Origin: Opitutales bacterium
GTDB lineage: Bacteria; Verrucomicrobiota; Verrucomicrobiia; Opitutales; PNEW01
DNA: 32,000 nt
Assembly (NCBI GenBank): GCA_965219535.1
Contig: CBDCNV010000001.1
Coordinates: 90,001 to 122,000, forward strand
Direction: 5' to 3'
Part shown: positions 1-14,263 of the stretch, piece by piece
Layout: every line of letters begins with the position of its first letter
Numbering within the stretch: the first letter of the stretch is position 1
The notes under the pieces: model-generated
Databases searched by the model: none
Told to the model about the DNA's origin: nothing
The model's input: the letters and a program-made list of their open reading frames with translations, nothing else
Position numbers and translations under genes: made by a program

Positions 1-1
1 G

Positions 2-412
2 TACATACAAGACTTATTCGGGTGGGATGAACAGCTCCAGCTCGGGCGTCACAAAGACCGTTTCTCCCAAGAGAACACGAACCTCATTGTGCAAAACGAT
101 ACTGTAGTTGGATGGATTTCCGTGTTAGATCACGGGGATCACACCAAGATTGACGAGTTGTACGTGCTCCCCGAGTTTCAACGCAAGGGAATCGGAACAG
201 CTGTGCTTCAGGAGGTGATCAATCACGTCAAGCTACTCAATGTTCCGTTGCGCCTTAGGGTTTTAGGTATCAATCGTGACGGCATCCGCTTGTACGAAAG
301 ACTCGGATTTGCAAAACAGCATGAAGACGGGCCGTTTCTGTACATGGAACTGAATCTTCTTAAAAAAGAAACGACAGAACCATGGCAAAAGGGGTCAGGC
401 TCTGCATTCTGA
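2..412 (+). CDS. GNAT-family N-acetyltransferase, 5' end cut by the window edge; paralog of 3685..4185
   Basis: The frame is open from position 2 (YIQDLFGWDEQLQLG...). It is collinear with the 3685..4185 product, and the acetyl-CoA-binding-type motif QRKGIGTAVL is present. The last codons and the stop (410-412) lie inside the left inverted repeat of the RAYT unit. Confidence 0.8.
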   Translation, partial: YIQDLFGWDEQLQLGRHKDRFSQENTNLIVQNDTVVGWISVLDHGDHTKIDELYVLPEFQRKGIGTAVLQEVINHVKLLNVPLRLRVLGINRDGIRLYERLGFAKQHEDGPFLYMELNLLKKETTEPWQKGSGSAF

Positions 413-1438
413 CAGTATAGAGATAAGAACCTTATCTTTTCTTATATCTCCCATTTTAAGAGTCTTAATGGAGCGAGAGATGCTATCGGGGTGACCCATG
501 TTCAGTTGTTTACTAATCCATGGATTGGAGGCATTGCTTTTGCGTTTTAAAATCATGGCAATGACAACTTTCCACGGTGCAGATTTTTTATCATTGGCAA
601 TCTCCTTAGTTCCCTTAGCAAGTCTGTTGAGGTAATTTTTAAGTAATACTTCTGCAGATAGACCATTAATATCACCAACCGCTTTGGCTCCCGGTATTTT
701 ATATTTTAATTCTTTATTAAATTGTTTAAAGAGCTGTTTTTTGAAAGACCTGCTACCGATAACCCAACCTTTACACATTTTGGAAAACTGTAACTCCTTT
801 TGGGCCTGTTCATTCATTGACAGCCATAGGAGATATTGCTCATAACTTTTGTGCCCTGAAGGGGTGTCTTTTAAGCCTCCTATCTCTGACAACCAGCTTT
901 CAAATTGACAAAAGGGTGGTCGCTTTCTCTTCCTGAACAATAAGGGATAACTTGACCAACGATACATTCTTAGTTCATCGACAGACACGATGCCAGCACG
1001 TACCGGATTTAAGTGAATATAGTTAACCAGTGCAGCTAAACCTGGCCCTGGCTCAACAAGCAGAGCATAATAACGACCCTGAAAGAGATGACCACTAACT
1101 TTACGATAACGATTAAACTTATTAGCAAATGTGGATTGGAGCCAGTGCATGCCGAAGATTAGATTTGCGTTGGGCGTTTCTATAGCCAGATGAAAGTGGT
1201 TTCTCATAAGGCAGTAGGCATGTAAAACCCAGTGGCTTTTTTCTGCTCCTAAATATAGACAGTTAAGAAATGTCTGTGCAGCTCCCGCACTTTTAAAAAT
1301 ATCCTGACGATAGTTACCGCGGTTTATGATATGATATATCGCTCCTTCAAACTCGTAGCGTGGGAGTCGTGCCATCATATAAATATACGGCTTACCTTAT
1401 ATCATATTAATGTCAGAACGCAGGGCCTGACCCCTTTT
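387..1438 (-). mobile_element. RAYT/IS200-like unit: a Y1 transposase gene bracketed by 27-bp inverted repeats
   Basis: aaaaggggtcaggctctgcattctgac (387-413) matches the reverse complement of gtcagaacgcagggcctgacccctttt (1412-1438) at 25 of 27 positions. Each arm holds a GTCAG-N10-CTGAC hairpin, and both mismatches fall in the loop. Confidence 0.8.
395..1378 (-). CDS. REP-associated tyrosine transposase (RAYT, IS200-like Y1/HUH) with a C-terminal DnaA_C-like HTH extension
   Basis: HUH motif in RNHFHLAIE, the GHLFQGRY motif, and the catalytic-Tyr motif YIHLNPVRAGIV. The C-terminal segment KVVIAMILKRKSNASNPWISKQLNMGHPDSISRSIK resembles a DnaA C-terminal HTH. The stop codon (395-397) lies inside the left IR. 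Confidence 0.85.
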   Translation of the reverse strand: MMARLPRYEFEGAIYHIINRGNYRQDIFKSAGAAQTFLNCLYLGAEKSHWVLHAYCLMRNHFHLAIETPNANLIFGMHWLQSTFANKFNRYRKVSGHLFQGRYYALLVEPGPGLAALVNYIHLNPVRAGIVSVDELRMYRWSSYPLLFRKRKRPPFCQFESWLSEIGGLKDTPSGHKSYEQYLLWLSMNEQAQKELQFSKMCKGWVIGSRSFKKQLFKQFNKELKYKIPGAKAVGDINGLSAEVLLKNYLNRLAKGTKEIANDKKSAPWKVVIAMILKRKSNASNPWISKQLNMGHPDSISRSIKTLKMGDIRKDKVLISILSECRA

Positions 1439-1461: not shown

Positions 1462-3039
1462 TCAGTTGTTTGCAGCGACCTTTTCTGTTTTATATAAAAC
1501 TATTCCCTTTTCATCGTAAAAAGTGATACGCGCTAAGGGCTGCTGCTTCCCTTTTCCCGATTTCACCGTTAAGATTAAGAAACCACCCGTGGGTTCTTCA
1601 TTGTGATAGGGTTGTTTGATTTTACCTTCGGGATCGGAGGAATTTGGATCGCCAGGGAGATAACCCATGGTCGCATTGGCGCCAACCAATGCGCCACAGG
1701 AGAATTCTTCAAACCCTGAAGGATGGATGGCGTGATATTGCCAGTGCCGATCTCCACAGATAAGGTAAAAGTTTTTATCGCGAAAGCCGTTCTCGGTAAG
1801 CCATCGGAAAAAAGCTTCTCCCTCATAGCGAAATCCACCGGGATTAACATGGCTATCGCGTTTCTCATCGCCGGCACCGGGACCGATCATTGGCGTGGCA
1901 GAGAGGAGGAATTTAAATACGGTATCGCTTTGTAACAGTGTTTCTTTAAGCCAATTCTTTTGTTTTAATCCCCAAATGCTTTTATTTGGGCCATCCGGCC
2001 TGTCGTTAGCATCGCGATAATCTCTACCTTCGACAAACCAGATCTGAAGCCAATCATTAACCCTGAATGTTCTATAAGTTACTGGATTACTTTCTTCGGG
2101 ATCAACCACCGGGAGTTGTTCTTGAAACATTCTTATACCCAGCTTCGCTGAGGGGAGTGATCCAGAACCTGATACATGCTCATAAATGTTGGTTTTAGGG
2201 TAATAGTCTAAGTTATAATTGCGCTCCACAAGGTAGGGGTTTATGGGATCGGAATCGTTGAAACGAAAATCGTGGTCGTCTTTCATCCAGTAAGTTGCCA
2301 CTTGCTGAAAGAGATCAACAAATCTCGGCTGTGAGAACTGTTCCTGATATTTTCTCCTTATCTGCTGCTGCGTCTCGGCGCGCCCTACAAAGGGACCATC
2401 ATAATAAACATTATCGCCCGTTCCCACAAAGTAATCAGGTTTGAGCTTTAAGATAGAGACGAGAGCTGGATATCCCAGCAGTTTATCTTCACCGCTGCTT
2501 GGGGGAATCTTTTTTTTCACCGCTGCGGGGGGGAATCTTTGTTTTTCCCGACCTGTGTGGTGAAACCTTGAGTAGTGCATTCCAGTAACGACGGCAAAAT
2601 TAATTTCATCATGAGATTTACCCCCCCCATGGGTCTTAAAATTAGAAGTCATTCCCTTTCCTGTGTTTATGGTATCCGAACCGTAGATAACACGGTAGTA
2701 GTAACGCCTACCCGGATCCAAGTCAGTTATTTTTGTCTTAACAATATAATCGTAATCTGGGACTGCTTTTATCCATGGCGTTCGGAAAGATTCTTTAAAG
2801 TCTGGAGTGGTCGAAATTTCAAAACAAGCCCATCCGGTTAAACCAGGAATCCCCGACCACGATTTATCGAAGAGAGGATTCGATGAAGTTATTCGTGTCT
2901 GAAGAATAACACTGTGATCCGAAACTTCACCAGCCATTTGCCCTTGGGCTAATGAGTATGCCTCCAGAAAACCAGCTCCATACTCTATGGTATATATTGC
3001 CAATGATAAAAAAATTATTAAAAATAATTTCAGTTTCAT
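1462..3039 (-). CDS. phoD: PhoD-like alkaline phosphatase/phosphodiesterase, secreted
   Basis: N-terminal signal peptide MKLKLFLIIFLSLAIY. PhoD-type metallophosphatase motifs GDNVYYDG, WMKDDHDF and CGDRHWQYH. Confidence 0.8.
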   Translation of the reverse strand: MKLKLFLIIFLSLAIYTIEYGAGFLEAYSLAQGQMAGEVSDHSVILQTRITSSNPLFDKSWSGIPGLTGWACFEISTTPDFKESFRTPWIKAVPDYDYIVKTKITDLDPGRRYYYRVIYGSDTINTGKGMTSNFKTHGGGKSHDEINFAVVTGMHYSRFHHTGREKQRFPPAAVKKKIPPSSGEDKLLGYPALVSILKLKPDYFVGTGDNVYYDGPFVGRAETQQQIRRKYQEQFSQPRFVDLFQQVATYWMKDDHDFRFNDSDPINPYLVERNYNLDYYPKTNIYEHVSGSGSLPSAKLGIRMFQEQLPVVDPEESNPVTYRTFRVNDWLQIWFVEGRDYRDANDRPDGPNKSIWGLKQKNWLKETLLQSDTVFKFLLSATPMIGPGAGDEKRDSHVNPGGFRYEGEAFFRWLTENGFRDKNFYLICGDRHWQYHAIHPSGFEEFSCGALVGANATMGYLPGDPNSSDPEGKIKQPYHNEEPTGGFLILTVKSGKGKQQPLARITFYDEKGIVLYKTEKVAANN

Positions 3040-14245: not shown

Positions 14246-14263
14246 CAAGGACTGACCCCATTT
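14246..14263 (+). repeat. Solo partial copy of the RAYT-flanking repeat (half-site)
   Basis: caaggactgaccccattt matches cagggcctgacccctttt from the right IR (1421-1438) at 15 of 18 positions. The GTCAG half of the hairpin is absent. Confidence 0.35.

Follow-up and report, generated by a model that had tools for sequence, protein, structure and literature searches.

The DNA analysed here is a stretch of 32,000 nucleotides, in the following called the window, from an Opitutales bacterium (contig CBDCNV010000001.1, positions 90,001 to 122,000). Near its beginning three genes lie close together, namely the open reading frame (ORF) of a GNAT acetyltransferase (GNAT-1; 2–412, plus strand; Acetyltransf_1 at E 4e-15), the 3′ end of which is rewritten, a gene for a Y1-type transposase (395–1378, minus strand) and a gene for a PhoD-like phosphatase (1462–3039, minus strand), which is contained in a block of ~2.1 kb (1446/1451–3556). 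The transposase gene is bracketed by inverted repeats. It is highly probable that positions 380–1445 represent a complete TIRtron, i.e., a single TIRYT gene (subclass 2.1 of the TnpA-Y1 proteins, equivalent to RAYT Group 1) between terminal inverted repeats (TIRs). Elements of this type have already been described, and the unit adds one more TIRtron, intact and 1,066 bp long. Comparisons were made between the genome of the window (G000; two contigs, 4.47 Mb) and, among others, G001 from the same genus, G003 from a different genus and G040 from the same order.

The transposase

The TIRYT gene is an uninterrupted ORF of 327 codons, and its product of 327 aa is matched by Pfam Y1_Tnp with an E-value of 5.6e-12. 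The Y1/HUH catalytic core (window 1013–1342, minus strand; aa 13–122 according to the Pfam envelope) includes the HUH residues H61 and H63 as well as the catalytic Tyr120. In an alignment of the window protein with 18 homologs (19 sequences), the HUH motif H61-F-H63 (NHFHL, 60–64), GHLFQGRY (96–103) and YIHLNPV (120–126) are invariant, and a profile alignment to E. coli TnpA_REP places the hMHc of this enzyme on nHFHL and its Y115 on Y120. The original prediction, made from the letters alone, of a RAYT-family gene with HUH, GxLFQGRY and YIHLNPV motifs is therefore confirmed, including the proposed check that the catalytic residues align with those of Y1 transposases. The sequence has more than 7,300 matches among database proteins; the best of these (~48% identity, 94–99% coverage, ~325 aa) belong to records of Verrucomicrobiota, Opitutus and Lentimonas and are named "transposase" or "REP element-mobilizing transposase RayT" by their sources.

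An AlphaFold (AF2) model of the whole protein reached a predicted local distance difference test (pLDDT) score of 86.5. Its best fold match in the PDB is E. coli TnpA_REP bound to a hairpin of the repetitive extragenic palindromic (REP) type (4er8_A; E 3e-6, TMt 0.71), followed by the transposases of ISDra2, IS608 and IS200. The resemblance to the ISDra2 and IS608 enzymes, together with the Y1_Tnp domain, would fit with an insertion sequence of the IS200/IS605 type with subterminal hairpins. However, with 16.4 bits the NCBIfam model transpos_IS200 stayed far below its cut-off of 55, the Y motif has the class 2 form Y---NP and not Y--NQ, the ends are true inverted repeats and no tnpB is present, which makes an IS200/IS605-type element hardly credible.

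The last 92 residues (aa 236–327; window 398–673, minus strand) form a helical domain that is predicted to have a fold like that of DnaA domain IV. Modelled alone with AF2 (pLDDT 89), this domain retrieved DNA-binding domains of DnaA as all of its top seven Foldseek matches in the PDB (M. tuberculosis 3pvp, E. coli 1j1v, 8btg and Aquifex 3r8f among them), with TM-scores of 0.58–0.64 over ~90 columns and E-values of 0.17–1.6. The hidden Markov model (HMM) for Bac_DnaA_C, PF08299, did not match any of the 19 family members at E<=10, and a six-frame search of the own genome with it found the true dnaA only and not the transposase. Likewise, a comparison of the C-terminal region with the DnaA of the same genome by hhalign had a probability of 0.2, and a profile of this region against PDB sequences yielded nothing meaningful. 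As judged from the models, the DnaA likeness thus exists at the level of the fold and not at that of the sequence. Of the helix-turn-helix (HTH) extension resembling DnaA_C that had been proposed, the fold was recovered by Foldseek while the suggested search with the Bac_DnaA_C model remained without a match.

Limits and terminal repeats of the element

The repeat search returned one strong inverted pair, the left (387–417, plus strand) and the right TIR (1408–1438, minus strand), which are 31 nt long and complementary at 28 of 31 positions (90%). Within a core of 28 nt the arms differ at two positions, in agreement with the predicted bracketing of the gene by inverted repeats with two differences. 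The conserved motif GGGGTCAG occupies 391–398 on the left and is preceded by an outer segment at 380–390; on the right its counterpart CTGACCCC lies at 1427–1434 and is followed by the outer segment 1435–1445. In full, the TIRs are ~40 bp long, and the outer part of each consists of an A-rich segment of 11 nt and then GGGGTCAG. The start of the window repeat, AAAAGGGGTCAG, fits GGGGWSAS exactly. A search of the whole window with Rfam at the gathering threshold had no match.

The sister genomes allowed the limits of the unit to be set. Homology to the GNAT-1 region of G001 (99%) ends at 379, and homology to the PhoD flank begins at 1446 in the case of G003 (99%) and at 1451 in the case of G001. 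The DNA peculiar to this genome relative to the sister genomes is hence 380–1445, which is symmetric, reaching 11 nt beyond GGGG and CCCC at the two ends; the whole unit, which has no strand of its own, is composed of 11 nt, GGGG...CCCC (1,044 bp) and again 11 nt, i.e., 1,066 bp. This size agrees with that of the identical copies of 1,064–1,066 bp in G040. The span GGGG..CCCC is 1,044 bp in the window as well as in the related unit of G001 (L003), and the span GGG..CCC in G040 is also 1,044 bp.

The left TIR belongs at the same time to two convergent reading frames. The stop codon TGA of the transposase is the complement of TCA (395–397) within GGGGTCAG, and the last seven codons of the gene are encoded by this TIR, while the stop codon TGA of GNAT-1 lies at 410–412. 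Both ORFs therefore end inside the left repeat with an overlap of 18 nt (ends at 412 and 395), as had been predicted. The native end of GNAT-1, ...ETAEDS*, is here replaced by ...ETTE+PWQKGSGSAF*, which is read from 380–412 of the TIRtron.

Assignment to the TIRtrons

Quentin et al. (2018; PMC6006769) divided the Y1 proteins into subclasses, the signatures of which are given in their Table 1. For subclass 2.1 these are the HuH motif NHVH or NH[YF]H, W[EQ] or FQ at the W-position, the Y motif YIELNP or Y[IV]HLNP, and SS. The subclass includes the longest proteins of that sample, whose additional C-terminal part was compared to Bac_DnaA_C or HTH_23/28, and no REP-like structures were reported for it (Quentin et al., 2018). 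According to the same authors, it corresponds to RAYT Group 1 (Bertels et al., 2017; PMC5581495) and to the majority of the TIRYTs that Di Nocera et al. (2013; PMC3733652) defined. In the latter study, TIRtrons were described as RAYT-like genes framed by long TIRs that have no relationship to REPs. GGGGWSAS is common to many of these TIRs, some reach into the 3′ end of the gene, and some TIRtrons belong to moderately abundant TIR families with single, dimeric or clustered copies (Di Nocera et al., 2013).

Every one of the listed signatures of subclass 2.1 is found in the window protein. It contains NHFH at aa 60–63 (N60, H61 and H63 being invariant in the 19 sequences), FQ at the W-position (HLFQGRY; F99 and Q100 likewise invariant), the invariant Y motif YIHLNP at aa 120–125 and the SS motif as WSS in YRWSSY (aa 139–144), proximal after the Y motif. 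It is also a long protein with a tail of DnaA fold, the extra C-terminal HTH being recognized by fold and not by a Pfam HMM. The repeats are of the GGGGWSAS type, with an inverted repeat of 31 nt that carries GGGGTCAG, an outer motif that is kept in five related units and a hairpin that is not significant. By motifs and repeat end, the gene is accordingly placed as a putative member of subclass 2.1, Group 1 and the TIRYTs.

The unit shares with the published TIRtrons the RAYT-like Y1 gene between long TIRs of the GGGGWSAS type (here GGGGTCAG), the overlap of one TIR with the 3′ end of the gene, and a moderately small TIR family in the genome that comprises dimers and solo copies. It differs from them in its host, which is Verrucomicrobiota/Opitutales-like and outside that survey, in its limits, for which sister genomes were here used (11 nt beyond GGGG, 1,066 bp in total), and in its site, which is a junction of gene modules. 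With subclass 2.1 and RAYT Group 1 it has the motifs, the long protein, the C-terminal HTH, the absence of REP-like structures and the low copy number in common, 16-mers of the flanking repeats being present at about a dozen copies. Unlike there, the DnaA likeness is seen by fold and not with the Pfam HMM, and the middle region (aa 150–235) is conserved and helical, too.

The original prediction had understood the locus as the classic arrangement of a RAYT between REPs with hairpin-bearing repeats. In such a REPtron, a RAYT of the Group 2/3 type would lie between REP hairpins and would spread REP or REPIN sequences through recognition of the hairpin. A single-copy gene between inverted copies of a short repeat that also exists as inverted doublets elsewhere, the 5-bp palindrome GTCAG..CTGAC in each arm, and the homologs bearing the name "REP element-mobilizing transposase RayT" are in line with this idea, and GTCAG-N10-CTGAC is indeed literally present in both arms. 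However, the folding energy of the stem is only -2.8 kcal/mol (z-scores +0.19 and -0.17), and 103 and 84 of 200 shuffled sequences, respectively, fold equally well. The stem is also missing from related units. Five of them (G001 L003, G015 L004, G040 L006, G031 L005 and G019 L011) keep (A)AGGGGTCAG at the outer end, whereas their inner repeat sequences are unrelated and no stem exists at the corresponding place. As the hairpin thus folds at chance level and is not conserved in related units, it is incidental, and the arrangement is that of a TIRtron and not of a REPtron. Moreover, a GTAG/CGTC foot, which together with a stable stem-loop and a high copy number characterizes classical REPs, is absent from the window repeats, and the NCBIfam model REP_Tyr_transpos (NF047646) gave 58.9 bits, which is below its equivalog cut-off of 80 bits. 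The protein shows the motifs of subclass 2.1, a group in which REP-like structures have not been reported, and the repeat is present in about a dozen and not in hundreds of copies. A classical REPtron is therefore improbable, and the earlier reading as a RAYT flanked by REPs gives way to that of a TIRYT in a TIRtron.

E. coli TnpA_REP (4er8) nevertheless offers the best structural match to the catalytic domain, with aligned HUH motif and catalytic Tyr. In contrast to the window protein it has only 165 aa, lacks a C-terminal HTH and recognizes GTAG-footed REP hairpins, and REPs occur in hundreds. A further parallel exists to REPIN doublets, as the TIR dimers described below also consist of two inverted units with a spacer of 12–13 nt, form a palindromic element of ~80 nt and are probably mobilized in trans. 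Their units are, however, TIR ends in which no internal hairpin is significant, and they number from a few to ~12 copies per genome.

Copies in this and related genomes

Besides the one full TIRYT gene, G000 contains a fragment of 40 aa. The TIR type of the window recurs in this genome as inverted dimers (C1:560456, C1:1631563 and C2:1462471), as a degenerate dimer (C2:1437200) and as solo copies (C2:1466011, C2:1458667 and C1:1757922), so that the search for further copies of the repeat, which had been proposed as a check, was positive. The sequence AAGGGGTCAG occurs 22 times in G000, with 6.8 occurrences expected. Within the window, a solo relic of the TIR outer end (AAATGGGGTCAGTCCTTG) is located at 14246–14263 on the minus strand; it matches at 15 of 18 positions, for which the chance expectation is 0.03 per window, and the predicted half-site copy is hence well founded. 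Its part ATTCAAGGACTGACCCC also adjoins a full TIR in G001 (L034). The sequence GTCAGTTTCTGACA, 40–56 nt before the window, was considered as another repeat copy. It lies in an N-terminal coding region shared with GNAT-2, the second GNAT gene of the window, has no GGGG end and was rejected as a coincidence.

At least ten dimers of the same TIR type were found in G001. They are ~80 nt long and consist of GGCAAAAGGGGTCAGGCTCTGCATTCTGACA, which is part of the left TIR and recurs in these dimers with 100% identity, a spacer of 12–13 nt and the inverted arm. The closest TIRYT of G001 (79% identity at the aa and 84% at the nt level) resides in an unrelated context and has its own TIR variant (GGGGTCAGGCCATGCATTCTGGCA).

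Other repeat families of G000 have merely the AAAGGGGTCA end in common with the window TIR. The largest of them begins with AAAAGGGGTCAAACGTAGAATTTAAAT and has ~30 copies, many of which are inverted pairs 100–290 nt apart, resembling miniature inverted-repeat transposable elements; apart from the GGGGTCA end it has nothing in common with the window TIR. Its sites include C1:550048, 552964, 554873, 558847, 756505/756607, 1762518/1762656 and 1765010/1765148 as well as C2:727636/727773 and 1446653/1446944. No cognate transposase gene for the AAAAGGGGTCAAACGTAGAATTTAAAT family and the other AAAGGGGTCA-ended families was found in G000. At one further site, G000 (C2:2279230-2279310) and G003 (C7:1610930-1611000; L041) share a flank (...GCAAAAGATTG) that is followed by different GGGGTCAGG-ended inverted dimers, and elements at one site have therefore been replaced or diverge fast.

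An indication of mobility comes from G040, in which the 64 matches to the TIRYT protein represent several subfamilies and also include fragments as well as copies interrupted by in-frame stops. Three sampled copies are 99.5–100% identical over 1,064–1,066 bp; the identity ends at the repeat ends, and the flanks are unrelated. In at least one relative, complete TIRtrons of such a length therefore act like insertion sequences, in accordance with Group 1 being the most IS-like of the RAYT groups, most of which are housekeeping-like (Bertels et al., 2017). The expansion of TIRtrons in G040 is comparable to a bloom of insertion sequences.

Several points speak against the assignment as a complete, working TIRtron. 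The gene has only one copy in this genome, and the two TIRs differ at three of 31 positions, which could reflect an inactive or domesticated state. A clean pair of filled and empty sites is missing, the flanks are not contiguous in any of the relatives searched, and no target-site duplication is visible. The DnaA likeness is derived from fold comparisons with modest E-values and obtains no support from sequence profiles. Activity, finally, has been demonstrated for no TIRYT, and where the enzyme cuts and what its C-terminal domain does are inferences. Together with the housekeeping-like character of most RAYT groups, the single copy, the diverged arms and the flanks without duplication would fit with an immobile, domesticated gene that serves a host function, the inverted repeats being relics and the position at a junction resulting from unrelated rearrangements. 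Yet the novel DNA ends symmetrically 11 nt outside GGGG and CCCC, copies of about 1,065 bp are near-identical in G040, the relative in G001 is found at a different locus, and Group 1 is the most IS-like of the RAYT groups. Domestication is hence rather unlikely, and the assignment as a complete TIRtron is preferred.

Iteration of the repeat end

The outermost 18–19 nt of the TIR (~11 nt plus GGGGTC/A) are often iterated in tandem, two to four times with a period of 18–19 nt, and arrays of three and four units occur. The pattern GGGGTC-N6-14-AGGGGTCA was counted 2, 8 and 24 times in G000, G001 and G040, respectively, whereas the reversed pattern gave 1, 1 and 2 and the permuted one 1, 0 and 1 occurrences. 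Examples of iterated ends are G001:C1:1184868-1184912, G001:C1:806628-806652, G000:C2:1466028-1466052 and G040:C1:941585-941645. The genome-wide spacing of GGGGTC pairs in G000 alone was not enriched over permuted hexamers; an enrichment appears with the longer pattern and in TIR-rich genomes. The inner breakpoint of the iterations shifts by a few bases, and for this reason they possibly result from slippage and are not the footprint of a cleavage. The iterations could stem from slippage, serve as arrayed binding sites or be left behind by the chemistry of transposition.

The junction between GNAT-1 and PhoD

Positions 1–379 of the window match G001 with 99% identity, and at least 580 nt further upstream match with 98.5%. 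In G001 the homology stops after ...GAAACG(A/G)CAGAA, which is followed there by GACAGCTAA (with the stop codon) and then by the family-1 repeat, just as 3′ of GNAT-2 in the window. Comparison with this 99%-identical GNAT-1, which has a family-1 repeat directly after it, supports that such a repeat has probably been lost here. The sequence acagaaccat after GNAT-1 had been taken for a remnant of the family-1 repeat. This interpretation has to be abandoned, as acagaa is coding sequence of the GNAT gene (ACG ACA GAA, equivalent to ACG GCA GAA in G001) and not a remnant of ACAGCTAACCAT. The homology to G001 stops after 379.

The PhoD block (to 3556) is 98% identical to G001 from 1451 on and 99% identical to G003 from 1446 on, at other loci in these genomes. 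In G001, GNAT-1 is found at 3.83 Mb and PhoD at 1.13 Mb, i.e., ~2.7 Mb apart and each with other neighbours; as the two genes are so far apart there, the unit sits at a synteny breakpoint without a simple empty site. GNAT-1 and PhoD behave as separate blocks, and the TIRtron, which fills the junction between them, replaces one of the junctions between such blocks, the corresponding junction after GNAT-1 in the sister genome being formed by the family-1 repeat. Either the arrival of the TIRtron or recombination at it removed the family-1 repeat together with the last two codons and the stop codon of GNAT-1. The proposal that the RAYT unit replaced or interrupted a family-1 element thus holds with regard to the loss of the repeat, which G001 supports, but not as a simple insertion, given the distance between GNAT-1 and PhoD in that genome.

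In G000, no region is collinear with the flanks of the G001 TIRtron, and the flanks of 14 TIR-dimer loci of G001 and G003 yielded no clean pair of filled and empty sites there; homology typically ends at the repeat.

The GNAT-1 and PhoD blocks are 98–99% identical to DNA at unrelated positions of G001, with the PhoD block also present in G003, and the DNA beside these blocks in the other genomes is non-homologous or only ~80–90% identical. Judged by sequence comparison, these block identities suggest recent exchange between the genomes. In G003 (C6), ~125–300 nt past the end of the PhoD block (L026), there is a degenerate TIRYT N-terminus (MARKPGIESNDGLYVIIFR) and a GAAAGGGGTCAG end. This remnant comprises 19 aa in the same orientation as in the window and is a weak match (E 0.14 in a small search); its region is homologous to G000:C2:891798-892140. 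A TIRYT remnant that was suspected beside PhoD in G001 was not supported by tblastn. A co-location of AAGGGGTCA sites with family-1 repeats in G000 was also unconvincing, since 4 of 67 loci lay within 3 kb (1.2% expected) and two of these four were the window TIRs themselves.

At the other end of GNAT-1 (G000:C1:89880-90090, reaching into window 1–90), no ATG exists at the start position of GNAT-2, and the frame is preceded by a TAA. In both G000 and G001, TTG/GTG are the earliest possible start codons. GNAT-1 may therefore be N-terminally degenerate.

Possible mechanism and significance

What is directly observed is the domain composition of the transposase, the conservation of its catalytic residues and of the repeat end, and the scattered dimers. 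By analogy to TnpA_REP and the IS200/IS605 transposases, the N-terminal HUH/Tyr120 domain would cut and rejoin single-stranded DNA at the ends of the element. The C-terminal HTH of the DnaA-domain-IV type may bind duplex DNA at the conserved GGGGTCA end and thereby hold the enzyme there; Quentin et al. (2018) proposed a targeting of the replication fork instead for this C-terminal HTH. The TIR–TIR dimers of ~80 nt would be non-autonomous derivatives, probably served in trans by the same enzyme.

A more radical idea is that HUH enzymes of the TIRYT type and GGGGTCA-ended repeats contribute to the swapping of gene modules in these Opitutales-like genomes, so that the TIRtron would be the agent of the junction and not a passenger. 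Hints in this direction are that the limits of the TIRtron are the limits of the modules on both sides, that TIR dimers, too, are found where homology between genomes stops, and that the N-terminal TIRYT remnant of G003 with its GGGGTCAG end lies beside the same PhoD block. Such a role is nonetheless a long shot, slightly less probable even than a classical REPtron. It would be less radical to assume that the tandem iterations of the outermost segment (11 nt plus GGGGTCA) may indicate the two sites at which the enzyme cleaves.

For the window itself, what is gained is mostly a settled annotation: the gene encodes a TIR-associated tyrosine transposase (subclass 2.1, RAYT Group 1) and not a REP-associated one, and a discrete element of 1,066 bp rewrote the 3′ end of the neighbouring GNAT gene. 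To a class of elements without experimental mobility, the analysis adds exact limits derived from sister genomes, near-identical multicopy units in a relative and a confirmation of the DnaA-like domain at the level of the predicted fold. The recurrent tandem iteration of the terminal 18–19 nt could guide the mapping of the cleavage sites.

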